This document shows positions 7,437 to 46,001 of a DNA stretch of 64,000 nt, piece after piece (position 1 is the first letter of the stretch; every line of letters starts with the position of its first letter). This stretch comes from Mustelus asterias. Taxonomy: Eukaryota. The notes beneath the pieces were generated by a model, which worked only from the letters and a program-made list of their open reading frames with translations, did not search any database and had not been told where the DNA came from. The DNA lies in the NCBI RefSeq assembly GCF_964213995.1, contig NC_135808.1:12958001-13022000 (forward strand). The letters are read 5' to 3'. A program made the position numbers and the translations under genes.

Positions 7437-7516
7437 TCACTTGGCGGCAGTGCTCTCTGATGGAATCAGTTTTGCAATAGTGGTTATGCTGGATTTAATT
7501 ATGTTTCCTTCAGCTC
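7437..7516 (-). CDS. Exon 10 (terminal): GAEGNIIKSSITTIAKLIPSESTAAK*
   Basis: cttttgtctttctttag| strong acceptor, in-frame TGA at 7439-7437; AATAAA ~270 nt downstream. Confidence 0.65.
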
Positions 7517-9076: not shown

Positions 9077-9163
9077 CACTATGTTGACACTCATCAGAAC
9101 TTTTTACGCTTGTGTAGGTATTTGCAGATGGAGTTCCACTTGTCCGTCTTTTCCAATCTATGT
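9077..9163 (-). CDS. Exon 9: cytoplasmic tail (HIDWKRRTSGTPSANTYTSVKSSDECQHS)
   Basis: ctttgcgtcaacag| ... |gtaagt; 87 bp, phase 1-1; basic KRR juxtamembrane patch, YTSV motif. Confidence 0.75.
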
Positions 9164-12789: not shown

Positions 12790-12891
12790 GTATTTTGTAG
12801 AGCTGAAAGGTTGCACCAAGAATAACCAATGTCAATACCACAGCAGGGATTATCGTTGGCCATAAGTAGGCTGCTGGTTCACATTCTTCAC
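12790..12891 (-). CDS. Exon 8: extracellular loop Cys + TM5 (GEECEPAAYLWPTIIPAVVLTLVILGATFQLYKI)
   Basis: ccctctgttgccag| ... |gtaagc; 102 bp, phase 1-1. Confidence 0.85.
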
Positions 12892-14917
12892 CTGGCAACA
12901 GAGGGATAAATAGCTGAAATGTAGTTTTAATGAACAGATTGGGTGGGAAAATAATGCAATCCATTCACAACAAGTGTAATAAATGGGTGCAATACATAAG
13001 TCATTAGAAAAATTAAATGTACCCACATTAGCATTTATTAGTATCACAAGTAGGCTTACATTAACACTGCGATGAAGTTACTGTGAAAATCCCCTAGTCG
13101 CCACACTGTTCTGGTGCACTGAGGGAGAGTTTAGCACGGCCAATCTACCCAACCAGCACGTCTTTCGGACTGTGGGAGGAAACCGGAACACCCAGAGGAA
13201 ACCCATGCAGGCACGGGGAGAACGTGCAAACTCCACACAGACCCAAGCTGGGAATTGAACCTGGGTCCCTGGTGCAGAGAGGTAGCAGTGCTAACCACTG
13301 TGCCACCGTGCTGCCCACTTAGATAATTGCCACGAAAAATCCTTGGCTCACAATTTTCAGCTTGTCTCATGAGTTATGTTCGATGTGACAATTATAATCA
13401 GGCAATTGAGGTTGGTCTGCTTGAATATTAACTCCCTGATTAAGGGCCAAATTGTTGGTCCAGTCAGGGAGCCCCATGCTTTGTACTCAAACAGGAGTGT
13501 CGCTTCCTCTGGCACTCCAGAGGTAGACTGCATACTGAGAGCAATCTGTATAGTGTTGTTGGATCTTGTAAATAAAGGACTTTTGATGAAGGGATTTCCA
13601 CCTCCGAGGACTTATTACAGTCAATTTGATATTTTTTATATCTCTTTCATTATTATGAAATACCAGGATATTCCCTATTAGCACTCCTGACACTCCCAAC
13701 TCAGGAAATGGTGTGGCTTTAGATTGTGATTTTTATTAACTGGCAACATGAAAGTTCGCAAGGTCACACGCAGGGTGGCAAAAGTATTAAAGCTGCCAAT
13801 CCCAGCCAGCATGTTCATCAGATATTCACCTGCCAGAGCAACTCGTAAGTTCGAAAGATTCCAGAGATTTTAAAGAGTTTGATAGAATGAATAAGAAAAC
13901 CAGCTCCTTTGGGAAACGTAGCTTACCAACTCTCAAAAAAGCCACTCAAGAATGAAAAAAAAGGATGAGCAGAAATGTTTTTACAAATGATCATGAAACA
14001 ACTGGGAATACTTTGCCACAGGGTAAGGCTGAGACATAAACTATTGCATCTCAATGGAAAATTGAGTAAACATTTGAAGGCGAGGCCAAAACATTGTGCG
14101 ATTTCAAGCAGAAATTAGATATAGCTCTTGAGGGAGATGAGGGAGTCCAAAGCTAGGGGTCATAGTTTGAGGTTATGTAAACCTTTTAGGACTGAGGTGA
14201 GGAGAAATTTATTCACCCAGAGGGTGGTGAATGTGTGGAATTCACTACCACAGAAAGTAGTTGAGGCCAAAACGTTGTGTGATTTCAAGAAGAAATTAGA
14301 TATAACTCTTGGGGGTAAAGGGATCAAGGCTTGGGTTGTTTTCTCTGCAGCAGAGGAGATTGAGGAACAACCTGATTGAGGTGTTCAAGATTATGAGGGG
14401 CATGGACAGGGTGGATAGGGAGCAGCTGTTCCGTTTAGTTGAAGGGTCAGTTACGAGGGGACATAAGTTAAAAGTGAGAAGTGGGAGATTTAGGGGGGAT
14501 TTGAAGAAAACCTGTTTTACAGAATGTACCGCAGAAAGTCGTTGAGGCCAAAATGTTGTGAGATTACAAGAAGAAATTAGATATAGCTCTTGGGGCCAAA
14601 GGGATCAAGGGATATGAGGGAAGGTGGGATCAGGGAATTTGATGATCAGCCATAATCATAATGAATGGTGGATCAGGCTTGAAGGGCTGAATGGTCTACT
14701 CCAGCTTCTATCTTCAATGTTTTTCTGAAGCAGGCAGAAAAGGCCACGAGGAGCAAAGGTAATTGCGTTAGATTTGAATTGGTTGAGCAATGATTTGGTG
14801 GCATGGTAAACTTAATAGCTCGATGGATTCCCATGAAACTGTGGCAAAATTGACCGAGCTCTCTCAATCGCTGTTAAATTCATCAATTCAATTCTGAAAG
14901 TATCATTGAACACTCAC

Positions 14918-15013
14918 CAGCTTGTTTCATCACTTCTCCAATCAGGATACTCGACACACATATCCCGATGATCCCACCCACTGGAGCTGCTAAACCAAAA
15001 ATGACACGGCAGC
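14918..15013 (-). CDS. Exon 7: TM4 (RCRVIFGLAAPVGGIIGICVSSILIGEVMKQA)
   Basis: tgatttgttcccag| ... |gtgagt; 96 bp, phase 1-1. Confidence 0.83.
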
Positions 15014-17296
15014 CTGGGAACAAATCAAACAGGAGAAGCTTGACCAGGACACGAATCCCCATCTCCCAAAAGGAAAAAGAAACTTTAAACTTGGAAACAA
15101 GAGGATACCAGATAAACTTGTTCAAATTTGTCTTGAGAACTTTAAAATGGAACTATAGTATTAACGGTACTGATTTTTAAAATGGGATTTAACAATTTTG
15201 CACTGGCTTTTCCTTCCGTCTGCCTCCAGCTGTGTTGCTGGGAAATGCAACTGATCGGGAAAAATTTTAAGGGGCATCTTGACAAATACATGAATAGGAT
15301 GGGAATAGAGGGATATGGTCCCCGGAGGGGGAGGGGGTTTTAGTTCAGTCAGGAAACATGGTCGGTATAGGCTTGGAGAGCCGAAGGGTCTGTCCCGGGG
15401 CTGTAATTTTCTTTGTTCTTTGTATTGATCATTCAGCTGCAATGAATACGGGAAAATCGGGTGGAGAAGGCTGTGTGCCTCTGAGACAGACCATGTGATT
15501 CGCCAGACAGAAAATAAGGTGAGCTCTCTCTCTTCCTCATTCTCCTCTATTTGCTGTGTCCCAGTGATCAACTAATCCTAACGAGAGGAACGTGAAACAC
15601 AAAGTTAGGAAGGAGACCCGAGGTCCAAGCCCCATTTCAGTGTCTTGAGCATACAGTCAGCTCAGTGAAGTACTGAGGGAGTGTGCGACACTGTTGGGGG
15701 TGCTATCTTTAGGATAATGGGCGGGATTTTGCAGTCTTACTCATCCTGAAACCGTAAAATCCCGACGAGGTCAACAGACCTTTCCAATGTCCACTCCTCA
15801 CCCGCTCCGATTCCCATGGCGGGCGGGACAGGAAAATCATAGAATCATAGAATTCTACAGTGCAGAAGAAGGCCATTTGGCCCATCGAGTCTGCACCGAC
15901 CACAATCCCACCCAGACCCTATCCCCATAACCCCATGCATTTATCCTAGCTAGTCCCCCTGGCACGGCCAGTCCACTTAACCCGCACATCTTTGTACTGT
16001 GGGAGGAAACTGGAGCACCCGGAGGAAACCCACGCAGACACGGGGAGAACGTGCAAACTCCACACAGACATTGACTGAGGCCGGAATCGAACCCGGGGAT
16101 CCCTGGCGCTGTGAGGCAGCAGTGCTAACCACTGTGACATCGTGCTGCCCCAAAATTCCAGCCAAGATGTTCAACTGAGGTCTCTTACTCCCACTCAGAT
16201 GAATGTATCACGTTATTTTAAGGCCAATATTGACCTCTAAAATATGACCCAGTCATCCACCTCATTGATGCTTGTTGGACCATTTTATATCTAATTTGGC
16301 TACTGTGGTCTCCTACTTTAAACAATGATTGTTCTTTAAAAAGGTCACCCTTGGTTGTGAAGTGCCTGATGTTGTGAAAGTGCTTTTAAGAATGCAAGTT
16401 GGTTCATCCAACTCAGTGGACAGCACTATCAGTCTAATCCAACAGTGATAGAAGATAATTACTCAACATAGAATCCCTACAGTGCAGAAGGAGGCCATTT
16501 GCCCATTGAGCTGGCACTGACTCTCTGACAGAGTATCGTACCCAGGCTCTCTCCCCACCCTATCTCTGTTAGACAACACAATTAACATCTAACCCACACA
16601 TCCTGGACACTAGGGGCAATTTAGCATGGCCAATCCACCTAACCCCCACATCTTTGGAGTATGGGAGGAAACTCCCGCAGACACATGGAGAACGTGCAGA
16701 CTCCACACAGACAGTGACCCAAGGCCGGAATTGAACCCAGGTCCCTGGCGCTGTGAGGCAGTTGTGCTAACCACTGTGCCACTGCACATCAATATACCAC
16801 ATCTCATTCACAAACCATGCCCTAACACATTAAATCCAGTCAAATTATCATAGAATCATAGAATCCCGACAGTCAGAAGGAGGCCATTTGGCCCATCGAG
16901 CCTGCACCAACAACAATCCCACCCAGGCCCAATCCCCATAATCATGGTATTTACCATGCCATTAAGGGGCAATTTAGCATGGCCAATCAACCTACCCGCA
17001 CATCTTTGGATTACAGCAATAGAATGGGACAAAGGAAACAGTTTGCTCAATGACAAGGCCATAAAGGTCTCCAGCAACACATCATTTGCTTTGGGAGGCA
17101 CAGTGGCCAACTGCATATCAATGGCAGGGCTTAAAGAGAAAGCATTAAAATGAGAGTTGACTCACAGGATGAGATTAATGGGACTCTTTAAAAGAAGCAG
17201 AGATTGCAAAGTGAAAGTTTAATTAAGGGTCTTAATATCAGGAAAGATTTTGATAGGAATGATATTCATAATAATACAACTGTTATCTGAACTTAC

Positions 17297-17416
17297 GTTT
17301 GGTCGACAAGATCTTATGCAACGTCTCACAGGTCACCATATTAAAGGCAAAATATATGGTTATTATTAGATGCACGAATAAAAGCACTAACAGAATCATA
17401 GCGCTTCCAGAAGGTC
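17297..17416 (-). CDS. Exon 6: TM3 (GPSGSAMILLVLLFVHLIITIYFAFNMVTCETLHKILSTK)
   Basis: ttgttcttttcttag| ... |gtaagt; 120 bp, phase 1-1; not in ORF track (too short). Confidence 0.85.
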
Positions 17417-18409
17417 CTAAGAAAAGAACAAAAGGTGAATAAAATTACACACATTCATTAGCTAAAAAAGGAATACAAATGAAAACTACATATTCCTTCA
17501 TGTAATTCTTCATTGATAGACTCATATATGTTTACAAGCAGATATGGCATCATTTGACCCATTAGATCCATGTCAGTATTTTGCAAGAGTAATTCTAAAT
17601 TAAGTCTCACTGCTTCACCGTCTCCCCATTTTTATCTAAAGTCTCACTGCCTCAGGGAAAAGGGCACTTCACCAGCTTTGAGTTCCCCTCAAAGTCCCGC
17701 AACTTTCTGACTGGAAATATATCACCATTCATTCATAGGGGAGGCAATGGCCAAGTGGCATTATCACCAGACTATTAATCCAGAAACTCAGCTATTGCCC
17801 TGGTGACCTGTGTTCAAATCCTGCCATGGCAGATGGTGAAATTTGAATTCAATAAAAAATATCTGGAATTAAGAACCTATTAATGACCATTGTCGGGAAA
17901 ACCCATCTGGTTCACTCATGTCCTTTTGGGAAGGAAGTCTGCCGTCCTTACCTGGTCTGGCCTACATGTGACTCCAGAGCCACAGCAATGTGGTTGACTC
18001 TCAATTGAGCTCAGGCAGCTAGGGATGGGCAATAAATGTTGGCCACCCAATGACGCCCATGTTCTAAGAATGAATAAATTTTTAAAAATTACATTCACGA
18101 TCACCGCAACTTCCCGCCTACCAGTCTTGTCAGAGTCCTTTCACCTCATGAACTGCAGTGGTTCAAGAAGGCAGCTCACCGCCACCTTCACATGGACAAT
18201 TAGGGCAATAAACGCTGGCCTAGCCAGCAACACTCACATCTCATGAATGAATTAGAAAGAACAAGTGCTCCGTGTGACAGAGTAATCTGTGTGCAAACAC
18301 TCAACATCAAGAAATTCTTGCTGTCTTCTCTCCACGCTCATTAGCAAGTATAAAGAGGTAACCTTCAGACTGATGACTGTTATTGACTCTCCTATTTGCA
18401 CTGTTCTCC

Positions 18410-19020
18410 ATGAGATGAAGTGGAAGTGTTTGAGAGCTTCATGTTTCTAGGTGTTCAGATCACTAACAATCTGCCCTGGTCCCTCCACGCCGACGCTACA
18501 GTTAAGAAAGCCCACCAACGCCTCCACTTTTTCAGGAGGCTAAGGAGGTTTGGCATGCCCGCTACAACTCTCACTAATATTTACAGATACACCATAGAAA
18601 GCATTCTTTCTGGCTGTATCACAGCTTGGTATGGCTCTTGCTCACCCCAAGACCGCAAGAAACTACAAAAGGTCGTGAATGTAGCCCAATCCATCACTCA
18701 AACCAGCCTCCCATCCATTGAATCTGTCTACACTTCCTGCTGCCTTGGCAAAGCAGCCAGCATAATTAAGGACCTCATGCACCCTGGACGTTCTCTCTTC
18801 CACCTTTTTCCATCGGGAAAAAAATACAAAATTCTGAGATCATGTACCAACCGACTCAAGAACAGCTTCTTCCCTGCTGCAGTCAGACTTTTGAATGGAT
18901 CTACCTTGCACTAAGTTGATCTTCCTCTACACCCTAGCTGTGACTGTAACACTACATTCTGCACTCTCTCCTTTCCTTCTCTATGAACGGTATGCTTTGT
19001 CTGTATAGTGCACAAGAAAC
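18410..19020 (+). mobile_element. Rex1/Babar-type LINE 3' fragment (further copies ~605-840, 3150-3720, 4615-4985, 5825-6660, 25860-26360, 55510-56540, 57910-58470)
   Basis: ESILSGCITAWYGSCS...HPGRSLFHLFPSGK...RLKNSFFPAAVRLLN C-terminus; other copies end in (aaatc)n tails. Confidence 0.85.
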
Positions 19021-20022
19021 AAAGAACAAAGAACAATACAGCACAGGAACAGGCCCTTCGGCCCTCCAAGCCCGCGCCGCTCCCTGGTCCAAACTAGACC
19101 ATTCTTTTGTATCCCATTCCCACTCCGTTCATATGGCTGTCTAGATAAGTCTTAAACGTTCCCAGTGTGTCCGCCTCCACCACCTTGCCTGGCAGCGCAT
19201 TCCAGGCCCCCACCACCCTCTGTGTAAAATACGTCCTTCTGATATCTGTGTTGAACATTGTTCCCCTCACCTTGAACCTGTGACCCCTTGTGTTCGTCAC
19301 CTCCGACCGGGGAAAAAGCTTCCCACTGTTCACCCTATCTATGCCTTTTATAATTTTATACACCTCTATTAAGTCTCCCCTCATCCTCCGTCTTTCCAGG
19401 GAGAACAACCCCAGTTTACCCAATCTCTCCTCATAACTAAGCCCCTCCATACCAGGCAACATCCTGGTAAACCTCCTCTGTACTCTCTCCAAAGCCTCCA
19501 CGTCCTTCTGGTAGTGTGGCGACCAGAACTGGACGCAGTATTCCAAATGCGGCCGAACCAACGTTCTATACATCTGCAACATCAGACCCCAACTTTTATA
19601 CTCTATGCCCCGTCCTATAAAGGCAAGCATGCCATATGCCTTCTTCACCACCTTCTCCACCTGTGACGTCACCTTCAAGGATCTGTGGACTTGCACACCC
19701 AGGTCCCTCTGCGTATCTACACCCTTTATGGTTCTGCCATTTATTGTATAGCTCCTCCCTACATTATTTCTACCAAAATGCATCACTTCGCATTTATCAG
19801 GATTGAACTCCATCTGCCATTTCTTTGCCCAAATTTCCAGCCTATCTATATCCTTCTGTAGCTTCTGACAATGCTCCTCACTATCTGCAAGTCCTGCCAA
19901 TTTTGTGTCGTCCGCAAACTTACTGATCACCCCAGTTACACCTTCTTCCAGATCATTTATATAAATCACAAACAGCAGAGGTCCCAATACAGAGCCCTGC
20001 GGAACACCACTAGTCACAGGCT
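19020..20022 (-). mobile_element. CR1 3' fragment inserted at the end of a Rex1/Babar copy
   Basis: ORF 19094..20017 with RT motifs. Confidence 0.92.
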
Positions 20023-22124
20023 TCCATCAGACTTTTGAATGAACGGTATGCTTTGTCTCTATAGCACGCAAGAAATAATACTTTTCACTGTATGCTAATT
20101 CATGTGGCAATAATAAATCAAATCAAATGTCACTTTCAGAAATGATTTGCTCATCATAACTTTATCATTGGACACTCACCAGTCTGTCCCAATACTTCAG
20201 CAAACAGAAAAGGCGTTGCAATGATATCTGCCACCGACGATACGATATTGAAAATTTCACGGCACACTGTGAATGAATAAAGCATTGGTCACACACGTAC
20301 ATGCACAAACCCTGACCTGTCTGTCTCCAAGAGTGCCTCTGGAGAATGCAACTGGTCAAGAATTAGTATTAGGGAGATTTCTTATTCCTGCACTTGTGAT
20401 TATTGAGTCAATCCTGTGTAATGAGTACAGGAGTCTTTAAGTGTATTTATTATGTCACAAGTAGGCTTACATTAACACTGCAATGAAGTTATTGTGAAAA
20501 TCCCCTAGTCGCCACACTCGGGTGCCTGTTCGGGTACACTGAGGGAGAATTCAGCATGGCCAATGCACCCTAACCAGCACGCCTTTCAGACTGCAGGAGG
20601 AAACCGGAGCACCTGATGGAAACCCACGCAGACATGGGGAGAATGTGTAGACTCCACACAGTCACCCAAGCAGGGAATCGAACCCGGTCCCTTGCGCTGT
20701 CAGGCAGCAGTGCTAACCACTGTGCCACCCAAAACCGTGTGGGGAGGGGCAGCTCCTCTGAGAGACCATTCTTGAAATGGAATTCTCGAATATACTTCAA
20801 TTCATGGATAGAAAATGAGGTGGCCTCCCTCGGGGATGTGCAGTGCTCTCCACCTGCTGGATCCAGCTGATCAGTTAATAGCAGGATGGAGAAAGAATGA
20901 CTACAACATTGGCTTTAAAGAGCAATTGTGGCTGAGAGTTAAGCATGCTGGGATATTTGGTCAAGCTATAATCAAGCACAGGTGCAAGCTGCAAAGTTAC
21001 TGAGAGCTGTGATCTGGTCTGTGAGCTGTGTTGACCAAATAAGAATAGTTGTTTGAACTAAGATTGACCCAACAGAGCCATGCCCGTATATGGGTTGAGG
21101 CAATGTGACCAACATGCCATTTAAACAAAGTTTTCTATCAATAACTCCATTGGCCTAGTTGGACAATGTGACCAGTTTCCGGTTACAGCTTTGTCTGGGT
21201 GCCAGAGAACTTCAGGTTGGGGCAGTTTGGAGATAAAAGAGACATTTCAGCCTTTTGTCTTCAGCGATAACTCAGATCAACCATGGCAAGAGTGCCCTGA
21301 AGAACATCTTCAGAGAAGGACCATGAGGATGGAATCTTAACTGGGGACAGACCTGGCCATTTTGTTCTAAATTGGATAGCATCTATTTTCAGTTAATGAA
21401 TTGGAGTTAATGTTCAGTTAAAGTTAATGTTCAGTAGAAGAGTTCAAGTGTTGCAACTGTCGTACGTTTGAGTTTGGTATCAAAAGTATTAAATTTTAAG
21501 TGAATCTGAGTCAACTCCTGTCGATTGGTTTGTCATATTTAACTGAGTGTTTGGAAAGAGCTGAAGCTAGGAGCCGAATAAGAAAGATTAACCCAAAGGT
21601 CATAGGTTCAAGCTTCATTTCAGAGACTTGAGAACGCCATCTAGACCAGCAGTTCAGTGCAGTATAGGGATTATTGCAGTGTCCGCTGTCATTTAGATTA
21701 GATGTTTAATTAGGGTCTCTCGTTTCCCTCTGAGATGAAGGTAAAAAGATCCCAACCTGATCAAAGGGAATTCCCAAAGCAGTTGGATTTGTTCACCAAA
21801 ATGATAGGTTTCATAGTCTTTGTCTGGTGCTAACACACCACCTGGCAAATTTATCCAATTCAAATCCAGGTGGTCATGGTGAGGTTAGAATTCACAACCT
21901 CTTGAGTTCTTAGCGTCGTACGTTGTTACTACACTGGAATATTTTCGACTGGATTTTTACACTCTGTTGCTGGTAGGTTTGAAGACATGGGGGTGGGGGG
22001 GGAGGGGGTTTTCAAAAAGCAATGCATGGTCTGCCCACAACCCACCCGTCAAGTCCTTAAGTGGCCCCTAAGGGCCTCACTCTGCCCCTGTCACTATTTA
22101 ACCCACAGCAGGAGGTGAACATAC

Positions 22125-22229
22125 CTTCAGTCTGCATCCAACACACACACGCAATGAAAAGAAAGAGAAATGAAAGCACTGGGGCAAACTCCAGGAAATG
22201 TTGCATCTTCTCTCGAACGAACTGGAACC
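22125..22229 (-). CDS. Exon 5: TM2 (RFQFVREKMQHFLEFAPVLSFLFLFIACVCWMQTE)
   Basis: cttattttctcag| ... |gtatgt; 105 bp, phase 1-1. Confidence 0.82.
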
Positions 22230-22261
22230 CTGAGAAAATAAGCAAATTGCTATCAACAATA

Positions 22262-22825
22262 TAATACATAAAACCTTGGTTAGGCTGTATTTAGAGTATT
22301 GAGTGCAGTTCTGGTCGCCACACTGCCAGAAGGACATGGAAGGTATGGAGAATGCAAAGAAGAATGTTGCCTGGTCTCGAGGGCATTGAATAGAAGGAGA
22401 GGTTGAATAAACTGGGATTGTTTTCACTGGAAAAAGGGAGGCTGAGGTGAGACCTGATAGAGGTCTACAAAATTATGAGAGGCAGAGACAGGGTGGATAG
22501 TCAGAAGTTTTTTCCCAGGGTGGAAGTGTCAATTACAAGGGGGCACACGTTCAAGGCGAGAGGGGGAAAGTTTAAGGGAGATGCGCGGGGGAAGTTTTTC
22601 ATGCAGAGAGTGGTGGATGCCTGGAAAGCGCTGCCAGAGGAGGTGGTGGAAGCAGGCACATGAGCAACATTTAAGAAGCATCTGGATGGATACATGAATA
22701 GGGAGGGAATAGAGGGATACGGACTAAGGACAGAAGGTTTCTTTTTTAGTTTAGTTAGGGCATCATGAAAGACACGGGCTTGGAGGGCCGAAGGATCTGT
22801 CCCTGTGCTGTACCTTTCTTTGTAA
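22262..22825 (+). mobile_element. CR1 3' fragment in the TM1-TM2 intron
   Basis: Degenerate RT C-terminus and 3' tail. Confidence 0.8.
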
Positions 22826-22977
22826 TACTTAAGCAGAAATTATTCATACAATAAAAGTAATCATGCTGAAAGTCGAGGTCCAAAATTTAATATTTAAAAG
22901 TTTCACAGGATTTCTAATATTAAACCGTAAGATTTAACTTTTTAATATAAAACTGTGCAAAGAACAATTTCTCTTAC

Positions 22978-23109
22978 TTTCTTTGCAGTATTTACTCCAG
23001 CATTGGGCTTTACTCAAAAAGGTTATAACAGCAGTTAACAGTGTGGCAACAGCAGTCACAAACGCAGCGATGGAAAATGCCACAGTGCTGTAGTGTATAT
23101 ATGCAAGAC
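22978..23109 (-). CDS. Exon 4: TM1 (GLAYIHYSTVAFSIAAFVTAVATLLTAVITFLSKAQCWSKYCKE)
   Basis: atttctatttcag| ... |gtaaga; 132 bp, phase 1-1, long hydrophobic run followed by basic residues. Confidence 0.87.
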
Positions 23110-24292
23110 CTGAAATAGAAATATTGTTTTTGTTACACTTTTAGCCAAACCAGATTGCAAAATGTAAACAGGGACATTTTGCCCCTCATAAACGTACCAA
23201 TTGAAGTCTGCTGTGTTAAACATTAATACACCTCCTGCGTTAGTAGCAAGGTCCTCCACGTGCTAGTTATCATATACAGATAGAATTAATAGCGATCAAG
23301 TATACAAAATCATTCTGAACAATTAAACAGGCCTGAGAATAAGACAAACATCATGTGAATACAGTAACATTACATAGTGTAGCCCGAGTACATTTCACCT
23401 TCTTCAAACCTGGGCTAAACTTCCTATCCCATAAGCCTATCACTAAAATTGTCTTCCCTCTTTCTCCACACCATTGCCCAACTCAACCCTAACGCCAGAC
23501 CAACTGAAACTCTTATGAATCTCTTAACCTACTTGCTGCATCACCCACGGAAAACACTTGTTGCAAACTTACTTACGACAGCATTTATAAAATTCCAACT
23601 GCTTAGCCTTTCACCCTCTATTCAGTACAACATATCTGGAGCTACTGATTTGACCAACTGCACCCTCATCTCCACGTTTGATGTCCTAGCCCCCAGTCAA
23701 ACCAATACTGTCTCTCACCCTGGCTGCTCACCCAATGTGGCTCGCATCTCTGCTCCCTTACAAATCCGAGGTATGCAGACTTGATCGGGTATGGTGGACT
23801 TCTGGCTTATCCATTCACTGCCAGATCTGCCTGGACCACGTAAAGTGCTGTCATCTCATTCCCATTCCAAAATCACCAGGAATGCAACTTTGACCATTGC
23901 CTGCTACAGTGGTTAGCGCTGCTGCCTCACAGCACCAGGGACCCAGGTTCAATTCCGGCCTCGGGTCACTGTCTGTGTGGAGTCTGCACGTTCTCCCCGT
24001 GTCGGCGTGGGTTTTCTCCGGGTGCTCCAGTTTCCTCCCACATTCCAAAAGATGTGCGGGTTAGGTAGCAAATTGCCCCTTAGTGTCAGGGAGATTAGCA
24101 GGGTAAATACGTGGGATTAAGGGGATAGGCCCTGGGTGGGATTGATGTCGCTGTAGACTTAATGGGCCGATTGGCCTCCTTCTGTACTGGAGGGATTCTG
24201 TGATTCTACTATTCTCTATTGTAAAACATCACTTAAAGGCCTCATTCTTCTCTCCTCCACCCTCACTTCATTTTCACCTGAAACAGATACAT

Positions 24293-24423
24293 TGGCCAAA
24301 ATCTTCAACCTCATCCGCATCTGGGATTCTCCAGTCCCGCCGCCGTGAACGGAGATTTGGCTGAGCGCCAAATTCTCCATTCTCACTGACAGCAGTGACG
24401 TAGGAGACCGGAGAATTCCGGCC
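24293..24423. mobile_element. Short MITE-like element with GGCCGGAATT-type termini (copies ~477-604, 8178-8300, 15720-16165, 37729-37865)
   Basis: Imperfect terminal inverted repeats, shared internal sequence, 3-bp ATT flanks in this copy (PIF/Harbinger-like, inferred). Confidence 0.5.
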
Positions 24424-24819
24424 ATTATTTTTAACTTACACTGCTTCCCAAATCAGAGTCGGCAGTAACATTTCACACGATAGGTATAGTTATCAAGGTC
24501 TTGTACGCTGGAAGATACAACCCTCCCCGCTTTATAGATTCAATGCTAAACTATCAATCATGTACTTAGGATGCAGTATAAAGTACACTCCACTCTGTCT
24601 CTGAAGTGACTGTTTCACCAGGAACAAACCGAATATTTTCTGCTTGCCACATTGAACATCTTGCCAGTACTCTCTGACTGCCACTGCTAACTGAAAAAGA
24701 AATGGCAGGAAAATGGTTCAAATTGTGCAATACCAGTCCATGATTTTCCATTCTCTCCCATGGAAATTTCAGATCATTTGTGGGTCAATCCATGTTTAAA
24801 AATGAGAATAATAGAACAC

Positions 24820-25732
24820 AATGGAGGTGTAGTGGACAGTGAGGAAGGTTTTCAAAGCTTGCAGAGGGATTTGGACCAGCTAGAAAAATGGGCTGAAAAA
24901 TGGCAGATGGAGTTTAATGCAGACAAGTGTGAGGTATTGCACTTTGGAAGGACAAACCAAGGTAGAACATACAAGGTAAATGGTAGGACACTGAAGAGTG
25001 CAGTAGAACAGAGGGATCTGGGAATACAGATATGTAATTCCCTCAAAGTGGCGTCACAGGTAGATAGGGTCGTAAAGATGGTTTTGGTACATTGGCCTTT
25101 ATAAATCAAAGTATTGAGCATAGGAGTTGGAATGTTATGGTGAGATTGTATAAGACATTGGTGAGGCCGAATTTAGAGTATTGTGTGCAGTTTTGGTCAC
25201 CTAATTACAGGAAGGATATTAATAAGGTTGAAAGAGTGCAGGGAAGGTTTACAAGGATGTTGCCGGGACTTGAGAAACTGAGTTACAGAGAAAGGTTGAA
25301 TAGGTTAGGACTTTATTCCCTGGAGTGTAGAAGAATGAGGGGAGATTTGATAGAGGTGTATAAAATTATGATGGGTATAGATAGAATGAATGCAAGCAGG
25401 CTTTTTCCACTGAGGCTAGGGGAGAAAATAACTAGAGGACATGGGTTAAGGGTGAGGGGGGAAAAGTTTAAAGGGAATATTAGGGGGGGGCTTCTTCACA
25501 CAGAGAGTGGTGGGAGTGTGGAATGAGCTGCCAGATGAAGTGGTGAATGCGGGCTCACTTTTAACATTTAAGAAAAACTTGGACAACTACATGGATGAGA
25601 GGGGTGTGGAGGGATATGGTCCAGGTGCAAGTCAGTGGGACTAGGCACAAAAATGGTTCGGCACAGGCAAGAAGGGCCAAAAGGCCTGTTTCTGTGCTGT
25701 AATGTTCTATGGTTCTATGTATGGTTCTAATG
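24820..25732 (+). mobile_element. CR1 3' fragment
   Basis: ORFs 24760-25526, ttctatg tail. Confidence 0.9.
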
Positions 25733-26457
25733 TTAAAGGTTGAATGCAAGGGATGTCACTGAAATATTATTTTTCAATCGGAAAGTAACTATCTGGATAA
25801 ACCCAGCAGGTCTGGCAGCATCTGAGGAGAGAGAAGCACTGTTAACATTTTGAATCCATCGACCAAGACTCTCACCAACTTTTACAGATGCACCATAGAA
25901 AGCATTCTTTCTGGTTGTATCACAGCTTGGGATGGCTCCTGCTCTGCCCAAGACTGCAAGAAACTACAAAGGTTGTGAATGTAGCCCAATCCATCACGCA
26001 AACCAGCCTCCCATCCATTGATTGTCTACACTTCCCGCTGCCTTGGCAAAGCAGCCAACATAATTAAGGACCCCACGCCACCCCGGACATTCTCTCTTCC
26101 ACCTTCTTCCTTCGGAAAAAAGATACACATACCAACTGACTCAAGAACAGCTTCTACCCTGTTGCCATCAGATTTTTGAATGGGCCTACCTTGCACTAAG
26201 TTGATCTTTCTCTACACCCTAGCTATAACACTACATTCTGCACTCTATCCTTTCCTTCTCTATGAACTGTATGCTTTGTCTGTATAGGATGGAAGAAACA
26301 ATACTTTTCACTTATACTAATACATGTGGCACTAATAAATCAAATCAAACCAAAATCAAATCAAAACTGTATTTTTGTCTCTCCTCATATGCTGCCAGAC
26401 CTGCTGAGTTCATCCAACATTTCCTGTTCTTGCAACTAAGTACCTGGGTTGACTCAC

Positions 26458-26727
26458 CATGAATAATAAGAGCGTATGACTTGGTCCTCTTGCTAACAGG
26501 ATTCTCCATGATGCAAGTATAGTTCCCGCAGTTTGACTTGATGGCTCTGGAAATAATCAATGTGCTGTTGTTTTGCACTAGTTGATATTGTTGGCCATTC
26601 GTTATCACTTCGTCATCTTTCCACCACAGAGTGGAACTCGCTGTCCCTGCAGATACTCGACAGGTCAGTTCAATGGTGGTATCCATGCAGGTGGAATTGC
26701 CAACAATCGAAGGTTCAGGAAGTGCTT
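26458..26727 (-). CDS. Exon 3: IgC2 domain (CD2/SLAM/CEACAM-like)
   Basis: tttatctcttcag| acceptor; EALPEPSIVGNSTCMDTTIELTCRVSAG...WWKDD...NNSTLII...KSNCGNYTCIMENPVSK...LIIH; |gtgagt; 270 bp, phase 1-1; canonical C-W-C plus YxCxxxNPVS. Confidence 0.92.
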
Positions 26728-38219: not shown

Positions 38220-39840
38220 AGAGGCTGGGGGGCAAAAAAAGGCTGGAGGGAGGGGGGGGCAAAAAAAGGCTGGAGGGGGGGGCAAAAAAGGCTGGAGGGA
38301 GGAGGGGGGGCAAAAAAGGCTGGAGGGAGGGGGGGGGCAAAAAAAGGCGGGGGGGAGGGGGGGGCAAAAAAAGGCTGGAGGGGGGGGCAAAAAAGGCTGG
38401 AGGGAGGAGGGGGGGCAAAAAAGGCTGGAGGGAGGAGGGGGGGCAAAAAAGGCTGGAGGGAGGAGGGGGGGGCAAAAAAGGCTGGAGGGAGGAGGGGGGG
38501 GCAAAAAAGGCTGGAGGGAGGAGGGGGGGCAAAAAAGGCTGGAGGGAGGAGGGGGGGCAAAAAAGGCTGGAGGGAGGGGGGGGCAAAAAAAGCTGGAGGG
38601 AGGAGGTGGGGCAAAAAAAGCTGGAGGGAGGAGGGGGGGCAAAAAAAGCTGGAGGGAGGAGGGGGGGCAAAAAAAGCTGGAGGGAGGGGGGAGGCAAAAA
38701 AGGCTGGAGGGAGGAGGGGGGGCAAAAAAAGGCTGGAGGGAGGAGGGGGGCAAAAAAGGCTGGAGGGAGGAGGGGGGCAAAAAAAGGCTGGAGGGAGGAG
38801 GGGGGGGGGAAAGGCTGGAGGGAAGAGGGGGGGCAAAAAAAGCTGGAGGGAGGAGGGGGGCAAAAAAGGCTGGAGGGAGGAGGGGGGCAAAAAAAGGCTG
38901 GAGGGAGGAGGGGGGGCAAAAAAAGGCTGGAGGGAGGAGGAGGGGGGCAAAAAAAGGCTGGAGGGAGGAGGGGGGGCAAAAAAAGGCTGGAGGGAGGAGG
39001 GGGGGCAAAAAAAGGCTGGAGGGAGGAGGGGGGGAAAGGCTGGAGGGAGGAGGGGGGCAAAAAAAGCTGGAGGGAGGAGGGGGGCAAAAAAAGCTGGAGG
39101 GAGGAAGGGGGGCAAAAAAAGCTGGAGGGAGGAGGGGGGCAAAAAAAGCTGGAGGGAGGAGGGGGGGGCAAAAAAAGCTGGAGGGAGGAGGGGGGGGCAA
39201 AAAATGCTGGAGGGAGGAGGGGGGCAAAAAAGGCTGGAGGGAGGAGGGGGGGCAAAAAAAGGCTGGAGGGAGGAGGGGGGCAAAAAAGGCTGGAGGGAGG
39301 AGGGGGGCAAAAAAAGGCTGGAGGGAGGAGGGGGGGAAAGGCTGGAGGGAGGAGGGGGGGCAAAAAAAGCTGGAGGGAGGAGGGGGGCAAAAAAGGCTGG
39401 AGGGAGGAGGGGGGCAAAAAAAGGCTGGAGGGAGGAGGGGGGGGCAAAAAAAGGCTGGAAGGAGGAGGAGGGGGGGCAAAAAAAGGCTGGAGGGAGGAGG
39501 GGGGGCAAAAAAAGGCTGGAGGGAGGAGGGGGGGCAAAAAAAAGGCTGGAGGGAGGAGGGGGGCAAAAAAAGGCTGGAGGGAGGAGGGGGGGGCAAAAAA
39601 AGGCTGGAGGGAGGAGGGGGGGGCAAAAAAAGGCTGGAGGGAGGAGGGGGGGCAAAAAAAGGCTGGAGGGAGGGCAAAAAAGGCTGGAGGGAGAGGGGGG
39701 CAAAAGAAAAGCTGGGGGGGCAAAAAAAGGCTGGGGAGGGGGGTCAAAGAGGCTGGGGTGAGGGGGGTCAAAGCGGCTGGGGGGAGGGGGAAAAGAAGCT
39801 GGCGTGGGGGCAACGTTGCTGGAGGGAGGGGGCAAAGGGG
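38220..39840 (+). repeat. G/A-rich minisatellite, ~28-30 bp unit GGGGGGCAAAAAAAGGCTGGAGGGAGGA, >50 copies
   Basis: Direct reading; unit length varies in G and A homopolymer runs; explains the spurious 500-640 aa low-complexity ORFs. Confidence 0.97.
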
Positions 39841-40353
39841 TTAGGCAGGGTGTAAAGTGGTTAATGGAATCCATAGAATCCTGACAGTGCAGCAGGCCAT
39901 TCAGCCAATCGAGTCTGCACGACCACTATCCCACCCAGGCCCTATCCCCATTTACCCTGCTAATCCCCCAACACTGGGGCTAATTTCACATGGCCAATCC
40001 ACTTAAGCGGCACATCTTTGGACTGTGGGATGAAACCCAGTAAGAGTTTTAACAACACCAGGTTAAAGTCCAACAGGTTTATTTGGTAGCTTGGTATTTG
40101 CTACCAAATAAACCTGTTGGACTTTAACCTGGTGTTGCCAAAACTCCCACTGTGTTCACCCCAGTCCAACGCCGGCATCGCCACATCAGGACGAAACCCA
40201 CGCAGACATGGGGAGAATGTGCAAGCTCCACACAATCACCCGAGGCAGGAATGGAACCCGGGTCCCTGGTGCTGTGAGGCAGCAGTGCTAACCACTGTGC
40301 CACACCTTTAAGCGGTAATTTAGTGAAGGAACATGAAGCAAAGTCTGAGCAAT

Positions 40354-40545: not shown

Positions 40546-40612
40546 CTTCTGCCCCGCCGGCCCGGAGCTGGAAGAGGACGGGCAGCAACAGGAGTGGGAA
40601 TCGCTGCTCCAT
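40546..40612 (-). CDS. Exon 1 (signal peptide MEQRFPLLLLPVLFQLRAGGAE) of Ig-superfamily 5-TM gene
   Basis: ATG at 40612, hydrophobic leader of 22 codons +1 nt, then GAAG|GTGAGG donor (phase 1); lies in a CpG-rich non-repeat island. Confidence 0.85.
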
Positions 40613-41976: not shown

Positions 41977-44900
41977 CTACAAGTCCAGACGGTCTGGAGG
42001 ACCGCACCGTTGTTGTGACCTCCTCAATACCGGCGGTGACACCGGAGCAGGTGCTTGCGGTGGCGTTCTCTCCAAAACAGCGTCCGGCTGTCCTCTCGCG
42101 GACTCACGGGCCGGTTGACCCTGATGAAGCGGTAGTGCAGGGGATCCCGGTACATTCTTCGATGGCGCCGATCTCCGAGTCTCAGGCAAGCTGTACAGTG
42201 GAGTATAACTGTTATGCACTGGTCCCGGTGCTGACCGCGCCACGTCCGGGGGAGAAATAAGAGATAGGGGATTCGTGACTGGGGGTATGGGAGCGACAGG
42301 GGTTGCTACGTCCCCTGCGGGCGCCAGGTCTCGGATCGAGACTGTGTCCTCTCGCCCGTCAGGATATGCCACATAGGCATACTGAGGGTTGGCGTGGAGG
42401 AGGTGGACCGGTTCGACCAAGGGGTCGGACTTGCGGGCCCTCACATGTCGCCGCAGAAGGACGGGTCCTGGGTACGTCAACCAGGCTGGTAAAGATATCC
42501 CCGAGGACGACTTCCGAGGGAATGAGAACATCCTCTCGTGGGGAGTAGCATTGGTTGCCGTACACAGGAGGGAGCGAATGGAGTGAAGCGCATTTGGGAG
42601 GACCTCCTGCCAATGGGAGACTGGAAGGCCTTTGGACTTCAGCGCCAATAGGACAGCCTTCCAGACTGTAGCATTCTCTCTTTCCACCTGTCCATTGCCC
42701 CTAGGGTTGTAACTCGTGGTCCTACTAGAGGCAATCCCGTATGAGAGCAGGAATTGCCTCAAGTCATTACTCATGAACGACGAGCCCCTGTCGCTATGTA
42801 TATAGCTGGGGTACCCGAACAGGGTAAAAAGATCACGGAATGCCTTGATCGACGTGTCCGCACAGGGGACAACAAACGGGAACCGGGAGAACTCGTCTAT
42901 GATGTTAAGAAAGTACACGTTCCGATCTGTTGAGGGAAGGGGGCCCTTAAAATCCACACTCAGCCTCTCGAAGGGGCGAGTGGCCTTGACCAAATGTGCC
43001 CGGTCAGGTCGGTAAAAGTGCGGTTTGCATTCCGCGCAAATCCGACAGCTCCTTGTCACTGACCTGACGTCTTCCACCGAGTAAGGCAGGTTGCGGGCTT
43101 TGATGAAGTGGTAGAGCCGAGTGACCCCAGGATGGCACAGGTCATTATGGAGGGCGTTCAAGCGGTCCTCCTGCATAGTAGCGCATGTTCCGCGCGAGAG
43201 GGCATCCGAGGGCTCATTGAGTTTCCCTGGACGATACATAATATCGTAATTATAGGTGGAGAGCTCAATTCTCCACCGCAAGATCTTGTCGTTCTTGATC
43301 TTGCCCCTCTGCGTGTTATTGAACATAAACGCCACGGACCGCTGGTCCGTGATCAGGGTGAACCGCTTCCCCGCCAGGTAATGGCGCCAGTGTCTGACGG
43401 CCTCCACAATGGCCTGGGCCTCCTTTTCCACCGCTGAATGCCGAATTTCGGGACCTTGAAGGGTGCGGGAAAAAAACGCGACGGGCCTGCCTGCCTGGTT
43501 TAGTGTGGCGGCCAGGGCGAAATCAGATGCATCACTTTCCACCTGAAAAGGGATGGATTCGTCCACCGCGTGCATCGTGGCTTTCGCAATGTCGTGCTTC
43601 AATGCCTTGAAGGCCAATTGGGCCTCTGGCGTGAGTGGAAAAGTCGTGGACTTAATAAGCTTCCGGGCTTTGTCCGCGTAGTTGGGGACCCACTGCGCAT
43701 AATAGGAGAAGAAGCCTAGGCATCTCCTCAGTGCTTTTGCGCTAGCAGGCAAAGGAAGTTCAGCAAGGGGGCGCATACGGTCGGGATCTGGGCCAATGAC
43801 CCCGTTCTCCACTACGTATCCCAGGATGGCTAACCGGCGCGTACGGAATACACACTTCTCCCTGTTGTAGGTCAGATTCAGGCGAGATGCAGTGCGCAAA
43901 AAGTTCTGGAGGTTTGTGTCATGGTCCTGCTGATCACGGCCGCAGATGGTGACATTATCCAGGTACGGGAAGGTAGCCCGCAGCCCATTCTGGTCCACCA
44001 TTCGGTCCATAGCACGCTGGAAGACTGAGACCCCATTGGTGACACCAAATGGAACCCTAAGAAACTGATACAGACGACCATCCGCCTCAAAAGCCGTGTA
44101 ATGTCGGTCCTCTGGGTGGATGGGGAGTTGGTGGTAGGCGGACTTAAGGTCTATGGTGGAGAACACCCGGTACTGCGCAATCTGATTGACCATATCAGAT
44201 ATGCGCGGGAGAGGATACGCATCCAGCTGCGTATATCGATTAATGGTCTGACTGTAATCAATGACCATCCGGGGTTTGTTCCCGCTCTTAACCACCACGA
44301 CCTGTGCTCTCCACGGACTAACACTGGGCTGTATGATCCCTTCTTTGAGGAGCCGCTGAACCTCAGATCTGATGAAGATCCGATCTTCAGCGCTGTAACG
44401 CCTACTTTTAGTAGCGATGGGCTTGCAGCCTGGTACCAGATTCTTAAATAAAGAGGGTGTGGTGATCTTTAATGTGGAAAGATTGCATGTGGGGCGCTTT
44501 GGACAATTTGGAGGCTGCAGCTGGTCCCCTACTGTCAGCGAAGGGAGTGGCCCACCGTACTGTAGGATCACACTCTTCATGTGGACCATAAAGTTTAGTC
44601 CGAGGAGAATTGGTGCGCAAAGATGCGGCAACACAAGGAGCCTGTATCGCTCATAAATTGTGCCCTGCACTTTCAGAATTACCACACAACGTCCTTGAAC
44701 CGGTACAGATCGGGACCGTGATGCCATAGAAATTGTCTGTTTGGCAGGTAGAACCCGGAGTCCACACCTCTTTACAGTGTCAGGGTGAATAAAGCTCTCA
44801 GTGCTCCCGCTGTCAAACAGACAATAAACTGTACGACCATCTACCTTAATGTTCATCATTGAACAGTCAAGCCTGTGGTGCTTAGCCTGGTCCAGGGTGA

Positions 44901-45960
44901 TCGACGCCACCGTTGGCCCTTGGACGTCACTGCAGGCAGCTGAGGTCGATGCTGAGGACCCCTGCTGGTCGCTCCTGGTCGTCGTCGACCAAAATGGCCG
45001 CCCCCATGAATCGCACATGGTTGAGGGCGCCAAGCGTAGCGACTCCTGGTGGTCATCCTCCTCCGACTCCGCCGACCACAATGGCGTCGTCCTGGACTCG
45101 CACGTGGACGGACCTCGTGGGTACTTCGACGTCGATGGTGATGATCCCCGTTCTGGAGGGTCACAGGCTGCACTGCCGTTCTTGGGCTTCGATCTGCAGA
45201 CTTTCGCGTAGTGCCCCTTTTTACCGCATTGATTACAGACCACCGCTTTAGCAGGACACTTTTGCCGTGGATGCTTGGCTCCTCCGCAGAAGTAGCACCG
45301 CGGGCCGCCTGGGGCTGCCGCCGTCGTCGGGTCTATATGGGAGCACACCATAATACTGCACTTCGAGCCCGTGGGGTGAGGAGGGATTTGTGACTGCTCC
45401 TGCCACGTTGTCTCCACGTGGTCCTCCGGATACAGGACCAAGCTCTTCGAAGCCGCCTCAAGCATTTCAGCCATCTCCATAGCTTGGGTCAGGTTGAGAT
45501 TCCCCTTCTCCAGCAGCTTGAGACGGATGTACGAAGACCCTACCCCTGCCACAAACGCATCTCGGGCGAGGTCGTACATGTACTGCTCAGCCGACACAGC
45601 TTTGCAGTCGCAGCCCCTGGCAAGCTGCAAGAGCTCATTGGCGTAATCCTCCATGGTTTCGCCCGACTGCCGACGTCGTGTAGCGAGGAGGTAACGAGCG
45701 TGGATCTCGTTGGGAGGTCTCGTGTAGCGCTTTTTTAAAAGCTCGAGGGCCCTCGGGTAAGTGGTGGCCGCACGGATCGCGAGGTAGACAGTGTCGCTTA
45801 CCCTCGCATGGAGGACCCGGAGTCTGTCGTCATCCGTGATGACCGCTGCAGAGGCTGCCAGGTAGTCCTCGAAACACTTCAGCCAGTGGTCGAAGGTGTT
45901 AGAGGCGCCGACCGCACGTGGATCCAGCGTCAGAGGCTCTGGCTTTAGTATTTGTTCCAT
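41977..45960 (-). CDS. Gypsy gag-pol polyprotein (1327 aa): two Zn knuckles, protease DSGS, RT, RNase H (ESDASD), integrase HHCC + DDE
   Basis: CYFCGGAKH..C..CNQCGKKGH..C; LFDSGS; DLKSAYHQL, PFG, YLDN; HNDLCHPG..CRICAEC; VDFKG/HSDRG/VERE; RT-RH-IN order. Confidence 0.95.
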   Translation of the reverse strand: MEQILKPEPLTLDPRAVGASNTFDHWLKCFEDYLAASAAVITDDDRLRVLHARVSDTVYLAIRAATTYPRALELLKKRYTRPPNEIHARYLLATRRRQSGETMEDYANELLQLARGCDCKAVSAEQYMYDLARDAFVAGVGSSYIRLKLLEKGNLNLTQAMEMAEMLEAASKSLVLYPEDHVETTWQEQSQIPPHPTGSKCSIMVCSHIDPTTAAAPGGPRCYFCGGAKHPRQKCPAKAVVCNQCGKKGHYAKVCRSKPKNGSAACDPPERGSSPSTSKYPRGPSTCESRTTPLWSAESEEDDHQESLRLAPSTMCDSWGRPFWSTTTRSDQQGSSASTSAACSDVQGPTVASITLDQAKHHRLDCSMMNIKVDGRTVYCLFDSGSTESFIHPDTVKRCGLRVLPAKQTISMASRSRSVPVQGRCVVILKVQGTIYERYRLLVLPHLCAPILLGLNFMVHMKSVILQYGGPLPSLTVGDQLQPPNCPKRPTCNLSTLKITTPSLFKNLVPGCKPIATKSRRYSAEDRIFIRSEVQRLLKEGIIQPSVSPWRAQVVVVKSGNKPRMVIDYSQTINRYTQLDAYPLPRISDMVNQIAQYRVFSTIDLKSAYHQLPIHPEDRHYTAFEADGRLYQFLRVPFGVTNGVSVFQRAMDRMVDQNGLRATFPYLDNVTICGRDQQDHDTNLQNFLRTASRLNLTYNREKCVFRTRRLAILGYVVENGVIGPDPDRMRPLAELPLPASAKALRRCLGFFSYYAQWVPNYADKARKLIKSTTFPLTPEAQLAFKALKHDIAKATMHAVDESIPFQVESDASDFALAATLNQAGRPVAFFSRTLQGPEIRHSAVEKEAQAIVEAVRHWRHYLAGKRFTLITDQRSVAFMFNNTQRGKIKNDKILRWRIELSTYNYDIMYRPGKLNEPSDALSRGTCATMQEDRLNALHNDLCHPGVTRLYHFIKARNLPYSVEDVRSVTRSCRICAECKPHFYRPDRAHLVKATRPFERLSVDFKGPLPSTDRNVYFLNIIDEFSRFPFVVPCADTSIKAFRDLFTLFGYPSYIHSDRGSSFMSNDLRQFLLSYGIASSRTTSYNPRGNGQVERENATVWKAVLLALKSKGLPVSHWQEVLPNALHSIRSLLCTATNATPHERMFSFPRKSSSGISLPAWLTYPGPVLLRRHVRARKSDPLVEPVHLLHANPQYAYVAYPDGREDTVSIRDLAPAGDVATPVAPIPPVTNPLSLISPPDVARSAPGPVHNSYTPLYSLPETRRSAPSKNVPGSPALPLHQGQPARESARGQPDAVLERTPPQAPAPVSPPVLRRSQQRCGPPDRLDL

Positions 45961-46001
45961 ACTCTCCTTTCCGTCGAGAGCTTAGTGTTAGGCAATAAAA
46001 T

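Follow-up and report, generated by a model that had tools for sequence, protein, structure and literature searches.

The gene in the window

The window, a stretch of 64,000 nucleotides of the Mustelus asterias genome, carries the annotated but uncharacterised gene LOC144496861, which was found as a 100% identical protein match to the C2 exon query. The gene has two products, P0002 (483 amino acids) and the isoform P0014 (585 amino acids). Mapping of the protein onto the window gives a model of 12 exons on the minus strand, from 40612 down to 7437, ordered as signal peptide, two V-type Ig domains, a C2 domain, six hydrophobic exons and two tail exons (Table 1). All of the exons have AG/GT ends, each intron is in phase 1, and the spliced exon model is identical to the annotated protein P0014. 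Sequencing runs were consulted for one of the hydrophobic exons, here termed exon X, and its two joints, and the remaining joints follow the annotated protein and the splice signals. Cysteines are numbered as in P0002.

Table 1. Exons of LOC144496861 and selected cysteine codons, in positions of the window
Feature	Positions	Strand	Remarks
Exon 1 coding part: start codon and signal peptide	40546..40612	-	Exact P0002/P0014 residues 1-22; GT donor; phase 1
V-type Ig exon 1, without B-F disulfide	36522..36827	-	Pfam V-set
V-type Ig exon 2	32599..32904	-	Recent tandem copy, 96/102 residues identical; in isoform P0014
C2/I-type Ig exon, membrane-proximal domain	26458..26727	-	Pfam I-set
C138, C-x-D-T cysteine, 9 before B-strand Cys	26687..26689	-	Lineage-restricted; 4/47 relatives; codon verified
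C191, D/N-C-G cysteine, 5 before F-strand Cys	26528..26530	-	46/47 relatives; likely Ig end of the tether
TM1 exon	22978..23109	-	
TM2 exon, C286 and C288 near outer end	22125..22229	-	
Exon X, diverged TM4-exon copy within TM2-TM3 loop	20180..20266	-	C295 at 20264-20262
TM3 exon and basic inner loop	17297..17416	-	
TM4 exon	14918..15013	-	
TM5 exon, outer loop first, C398 at 12883-12881	12790..12891	-	Likely membrane end of the tether; 46/47 relatives
Cytoplasmic tail exon 1	9077..9163	-	
Cytoplasmic tail exon 2, stop codon included	7437..7516	-	

The cysteine motifs quoted in the initial annotation of this DNA were found on the minus strand where it had placed them. The C2 exon codes for the canonical pair C147/C196 and for two extra cysteines, C138 (in NSTC) and C191 (in NCG), with no cysteine in the G strand, and the TM4-TM5 loop has a single cysteine, C398, in the motif EECEP. 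Two numbers require correction. The hydrophobic exons after the C2 exon are six in LOC144496861 rather than five. Three spare extracellular cysteines had been counted, a figure that leaves out exon X, which adds C295 to the TM2-TM3 loop, as well as C288, located where TM2 ends on the outer side; there are at least four on the outside, or five when C288 is included. The proposal that one spare cysteine would be left free for dimerisation is thus rejected, since the count was wrong and exon X supplies C295.

A family of V-C2 proteins with five predicted helices

LOC144496861 belongs to an uncharacterised and unnamed family of surface proteins, which combine V and C2 domains with five predicted membrane helices. 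A profile of ten membrane regions retrieved 47 proteins at E <=0.001 among 1.84 billion representatives, and a further search, for which 13 distant members served as query, returned 100 proteins. Named members come from chimaera, sharks, rays, salamander, caecilian, turtles, alligators, birds (chicken LOC422295) and echidna, and the shark and tetrapod profiles align over all five helices (probability 99.6, E 8.6e-25). No placental, marsupial or teleost protein with the membrane region occurs among the named matches (10 unnamed matches of the first search were looked up), a result still compatible with members in these groups, and the sole teleost match has 29% query coverage and Ig families only. 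In the 1.46 Mb around the window, C2 exons are full in 13 cases and partial in one more; nine genes are multi-pass, and a further four V-C2 units end in a lone TM5-like exon.

The labels that databases attach to these proteins (HEPACAM, CD48, 2B4, CEACAM, hemicentin) were rejected, as they reflect the Ig domains alone. In the ESM Atlas, chicken LOC422295 matched a single unnamed Ig cluster (110 members) together with Ig families, while the membrane region gave no usable feature match there and, by structure, just generic bundles. Searches of the open literature, which covered Creative Commons papers in PMC and bioRxiv, brought up no account of the family.

Most family members have five hydrophobic segments downstream of C2. 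An AlphaFold2 model of the C2 domain and membrane part of a relative, P0039, built with 54 sequences, has five long helices beyond the Ig domain (pLDDT 86.6, pTM 0.72). The corresponding model of the LOC144496861 protein itself (17 sequences) was poor, with a pLDDT of 45, and was left out of all geometric arguments; a complex prediction for C2 and the bundle, in which the alignment went unused, scored 0.00 and speaks neither for nor against contact. Lysine and arginine residues in P0002 number 6 in loop 1, 1 between TM2 and TM3, 4 between TM3 and TM4, 1 between TM4 and TM5, and 4 in the tail. By the positive-inside rule, this pattern implies that the TM4-TM5 loop lies on the outer side, where CD47 also has it, and we infer an outer position for the loops of the LOC144496861 protein.

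Conservation and joint loss of C191 and the loop cysteine

After exclusion of three non-members, 177 fetched proteins were considered. Removal of 66 partial or exon-skipping forms left 111 with a complete C2 domain and membrane part, and de-duplication at 80% identity reduced these to 47 relatives. Of the 47 relatives, 46 have C191, in a D-C-G motif, and 46 have the cysteine of the TM4-TM5 loop (C398); for each of the two, the count before de-duplication was 110 of the 111 proteins. The exception is one and the same protein in both sets, P0041, which has neither cysteine. Other positions are sparsely occupied: a C138-type cysteine occurs in 4 of the 47, a G-strand cysteine in C2 in 1, and a cysteine at the CD47 position, eight residues before that of the B strand, in none.

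A second case of joint absence comes from a paralogue in the locus (G000:C8:12.379-12.403 Mb), which reads D-G-G in the C2 domain and K-G-F-E-P in the loop, and in which the V through TM5 exons are open and have AG/GT ends. This paralogue is closest to P0037 in three of five exons and lies outside the clade of P0041, which clusters with P0048 and P0038. As read from these genes, both cysteines have been lost in two separate lineages. Among the nine multi-pass genes of the locus, both cysteines occur in seven; of the other two, one retains the loop cysteine alone and the other lacks both. C191 is gone and the loop cysteine kept in the gene at C8:12.47-12.49 Mb, where a new cysteine forms the last C2 residue and the TM3 exon was not detected; in P0054, which the coverage filter places outside the count of 47; and in three near-identical single-pass copies, which have gained C138-type and G-strand cysteines. 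The loop cysteine is never lost without C191, and the genes in which C191 alone is gone are all rearranged or partial. The probability that the two losses of the loop cysteine would lie within three C191 losses among 53 genes is 0.002, or about 0.004 with P0054 as a fourth C191 loss; both figures are post hoc and assume independence.

Because the two cysteines are almost universally present and jointly lost, and C138 is rare, the C191-C398 pair is the likely counterpart of the CD47 tether. We consider it probable that in this Ig-type surface protein, with five predicted helices, C191 of the C2 domain is bonded to C398 of the TM4-TM5 loop. The initial annotation had proposed a long-range tether of this general kind and had named, as what would speak against it, pairing of the two extra C2 cysteines with each other together with a non-conserved loop cysteine; the retention of the loop cysteine in nearly every relative favours the idea, whereas its assignment of the Ig end to the C-x-D-T cysteine, C138, fares poorly with so few carriers.

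Judged by antibody-domain geometry, C138 and C191 would both point towards the next domain, with the G strand between them. A tether from C138 to C398, with C191 free or bonded to C295, would draw on the location of C138 at the membrane-facing A'-B turn, and on the single-pass copies that have lost C191, gained a C138-type cysteine and retained the loop cysteine. The likeness of C-x-D-T to CD47 is nevertheless off by one residue, since C138 lies nine residues before the B-strand cysteine and the tether cysteine of CD47, C33, lies eight before C41 (PMC10902115). The scarcity of C138 also means that in most members the loop cysteine needs another partner. A tether from C138 is thus very unlikely.

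The bond between C191 and C398 might instead join two copies of the protein, or the protein and a partner, which would make it a covalent dimer link and not an internal tether. Such a bond would fit the joint conservation and the joint loss equally well, and the loop cysteine is retained in single-pass paralogues. Yet Ig-domain geometry leads one to expect both positions, within a single chain, close to where C2 meets TM1; the bond known from CD47 is internal; and independent self-pairing of each cysteine would not predict that they are lost together. We regard an inter-chain bond as improbable, and the internal C191-C398 tether is retained as the preferred reading. As an observation in its own right, joint loss does not separate an intra-chain from an inter-chain bond.

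Exon X and a second candidate pair

Exon X is an 87-base exon that most relatives lack. Its DNA alignment to the TM4 exon scores 57, a value reached by 0 of 500 shuffles (18.0 +/- 3.2), and no match was found between exon X and the other ten exons of LOC144496861. At the protein level, five of six comparisons with TM4 segments were reached by 0 to 25 of 2000 shuffles, and the TM4 segment of P0010 gave no signal. By this sequence evidence, exon X goes back to a duplication of the TM4 exon in the clade of LOC144496861, with the copy placed in the first outer loop. It is spliced in: contigs in three of four sequencing runs cover it exactly, with the TM2 and TM3 exons at their loose ends. Two of these runs (X12 and X15) come from one sample and the third (X1) from a different organism and study, and the fourth run, X2, gave no cover; no run is on record as RNA.

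The six carriers of exon X form one clade (support 96). In all of them the exon starts with C295, and C138 is present in the four carriers that include the start of C2; P0023 has C138 and lacks exon X. C191 and C398 are retained in those exon X members that have both regions. Since C138 and C295 arose in one clade, the four cysteines can pair with none left over. Whether C295 pairs with C138 is a matter of about equal weights on either side, for the two belong to one evolutionary event and the cysteine could derive from the TM4 exon, which has a cysteine in 20 of the 47 relatives. In the exon X clade C295 may thus bond to C138, and a covalent dimer would then be without a spare cysteine.

The same four cysteines also permit a different arrangement, with C138 bonded to C191 within the C2 domain and C295 to C398 between the outer loops, whereby the clade would have given up the Ig-to-loop tether. 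The origin of C138 and C295 in one clade agrees with it. However, by antibody-domain geometry C138 and C191 would be separated by the G strand and lie too far apart, and 42 relatives keep C191 without C138. This arrangement is highly unlikely, and C191-C398 with a possible C138-C295 pair is preferred.

As a copy of a membrane exon that is spliced in, exon X could also be a sixth helix. Its Kyte-Doolittle value in P0002 is 1.78, close to that of TM4 in P0016 (1.77), so that it could span a membrane; TM3-TM5 would then be flipped, C398 would be cytoplasmic, and the LOC144496861 protein would have no tether. Against this, the loops downstream retain their inside-positive pattern, the other five exon X sequences have values of 1.06-1.36 and contain acidic residues, and exon X members retain C191 and C398 wherever both regions are present. 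Exon X probably does not cross the membrane, and a sixth helix is extremely doubtful.

Comparison with CD47

In CD47 the second outer loop serves as the anchoring point of the Ig domain, through a C15-C245 bond (PMC8410850; PMC10902115). The abstract of PMC8410850 presents CD47 as the sole five-pass receptor of the immune system, section 10 of that paper reports no membrane domain similar to that of CD47, and a survey of the human Ig superfamily assigns CD47 to a group labelled Tetrapoda (PMC13262535). The family described here shares with CD47 an Ig domain followed by five membrane helices with the N-terminus out, as judged from hydropathy, the K/R pattern and the AlphaFold2 model of P0039; LOC144496861 departs from this plan by one extra hydrophobic exon. 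The TM4-TM5 loop cysteine is conserved in both, stands in a C-x-P motif in 24 of the 47 relatives (C245-I246-P247 in CD47), and is linked by a disulfide to the Ig domain in CD47 and probably so here. In CD47, as in the five-helix family, exon borders put the cysteine close to where the fifth membrane exon begins. The number of exons that separate the Ig exon from those of the tail is also five in both, as deduced for CD47 from PMC10902115.

The differences are no less marked. CD47 has a single IgV domain, whereas these proteins have two or three Ig domains, V-(V)-C2, with the V domain free of disulfides; their likely tether cysteine precedes the F strand and is not that found before the B strand in CD47. 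Unlike CD47, in which the linker into TM1 reads RVVSWF, they have glycine and unrelated residues there, with no SWF. The Pfam membrane domain of CD47, PF04549, was absent from the best 25 of 32 families for 10 membrane-only stretches, and gave no match for 14 proteins at E 0.01 or for 10 proteins at E 10. A sequence search of the PDB returned no CD47 chain. Searches of the shark's own genome for the two Pfam CD47 families gave no match, nor did their controls, an outcome compatible with either presence or absence of CD47 in this species. Structural searches of the PDB with Foldseek and VIA-align gave almost solely Ig-domain matches, with CD47 outside the top 50, a result with which a shared fold is still compatible. 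The top viral fold match was a squirrelpox CD47-like model (324 columns, E 1.2e-4), at a TM-score of 0.28 and an rmsd of 16.4 A, which attests to a like order of parts but not to a like packing.

Orthology to CD47 was rejected on account of the missing PF04549 domain and PDB match, the other ectodomain and the other tether position. For a more distant shared ancestry, the exon count, the cysteine of the fifth exon and C-x-P are soft points in favour. Convergence is at least as likely as descent, since duplication comes easily to one-helix exons in phase 1, of which exon X is an example. The family could be an older sister of CD47, both stemming from an Ig-plus-five-helix ancestor composed of one-helix exons, the fifth of which began with a cysteine; the tether would have shifted to another cysteine of the Ig part as the outer domains were exchanged, and a second, expanding class of five-pass receptors for self and non-self would persist in non-placental vertebrates. 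We consider this history unlikely.

Comparison with other Ig-type receptors

CD2/SLAM-type V-C2 receptors have a disulfide-free V domain and a C2 domain with a second, A'-G disulfide, one membrane helix, and ITSM motifs in the tail. The present family resembles these, and CEACAM and HEPACAM-type receptors, in its disulfide-free V domain (an F-strand cysteine is found in 0 of 42 sequences) with a C2 domain, and in its tandem, fast-changing cluster; weak profile matches are to Receptor_2B4 (30 of 70) and SLAM (8 of 70). It differs from the CD2/SLAM type in having five helices, although four copies in the locus are of the single-pass type, and in having no second A'-G disulfide. ITIM and ITSM motifs are absent from all 47 tails and Y-x-x-I/L/V occurs in just 5, which makes signalling through the bundle or through partners more likely. 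Skint1, of the butyrophilin family, is described as having IgV and IgC domains and three membrane helices (PMC4382165). It is thus alike in the succession of IgV/IgC-type domains and multiple membrane helices, and unlike in the number of helices and in the V domain, which lacks a disulfide here; no butyrophilin label occurs among the named matches of the family.

Implications

The LOC144496861 protein is likely to be a receptor of the adhesion or recognition type. An immune role may be suggested solely from its CD2/SLAM-like outer domains and the tandem expansion of the locus. The C2 domain would be pinned to the helix bundle at two places, by the linker between C2 and TM1 and by the likely C191-C398 bond, which we infer; the V domain would sit atop C2. 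The bond would thereby fix the angle of the outer domains on the bundle, much as the long-range bond of CD47 does, and the disulfide-free V domain would presumably be presented to a protein ligand on another cell.

The locus shows how such a bundle is rebuilt by means of one-helix exons, as seen in the duplicated TM4 exon, the four-helix paralogue and the single-pass paralogues. The present work describes, besides CD47, a second Ig-plus-five-helix family, which extends across jawed vertebrates and has been labelled in databases by its Ig domains alone. The two families probably employ the same device, an Ig domain tied to the TM4-TM5 loop, by way of different cysteines. Whether by descent or by convergence, the family offers a natural comparison for the role of the five-helix bundle and its tether, and chicken LOC422295 provides a tractable member in which this role may be tested.

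Exon duplication and rearrangement around LOC144496861

The V exon of LOC144496861 has recently been duplicated in tandem together with its flanks, the two segments (window 32572-33312 and 36496-37227) being 92.9% identical over 742 bases and the encoded domains agreeing at 96 of 102 residues. One or both copies are present, depending on the annotated isoform. A stray copy of the TM5 exon (L013; see table; Mb values and G000:C8 positions refer to the shark contig carrying the locus) is without the portion encoding the TM4-TM5 loop cysteine and without an obvious acceptor. In one paralogue four membrane exons were detected and no TM3 exon was found. Because its C2 and TM1-TM4 exons resemble one subfamily and its TM5 exon another, the sequence suggests that this paralogue is a chimeric gene.

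Features of the LOC144496861 window and cluster
Feature	Position	Strand	Context
LINE-type element reverse transcriptase frame, open, 698 residues	window 29453-31549	+	intron between V2 and C2
Open 1334-residue frame	window 41977-45981	-	upstream of LOC144496861 first exon
Purine-rich tandem low-complexity array, ~2 kb	window about 37900-39900		LOC144496861 intron 1
Paralogue: V-V-C2 plus four detected membrane exons	G000:C8:12.471-12.489 Mb		
Stray TM5-exon copy of LOC144496861 (L013)	G000:C8:12,946,061-12,946,144		~19 kb beyond stop codon

Mobile elements and neighbouring genes

The 1334-residue frame looks like the gag-pol of an LTR retrotransposon, its family being assigned by eye, and several reading frames are open across the purine-rich array. 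Fragmented retrovirus-like frames, also called by eye, lie past the right end of the cluster (L132-L134; 13.35-13.38 Mb). Interspersed in the cluster are three exons that encode V-type domains belonging to another Ig family and carrying two additional cysteines mid-domain (G000:C8:12,527,375; 12,842,857; 13,122,648), and EGF-repeat exons, for which Notch1 is the best PDB match, occur ~190 kb from it (L135-L139; 11.92-11.97 Mb).

Variation in the predicted number of membrane helices

Among the relatives, database isoforms P0004, P0009, P0011, P0018, P0019 and P0022 each leave out a single membrane exon in frame, and such skipping, if it occurs in real proteins, would invert the downstream helices. 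At G000:C8:12.60-12.81 Mb there are four V-C2 units, each followed by a TM5-like exon only; three of them are near-identical to one another and are recent copies. These units are single-pass versions derived from the five-helix gene, and their set of cysteines is altered.
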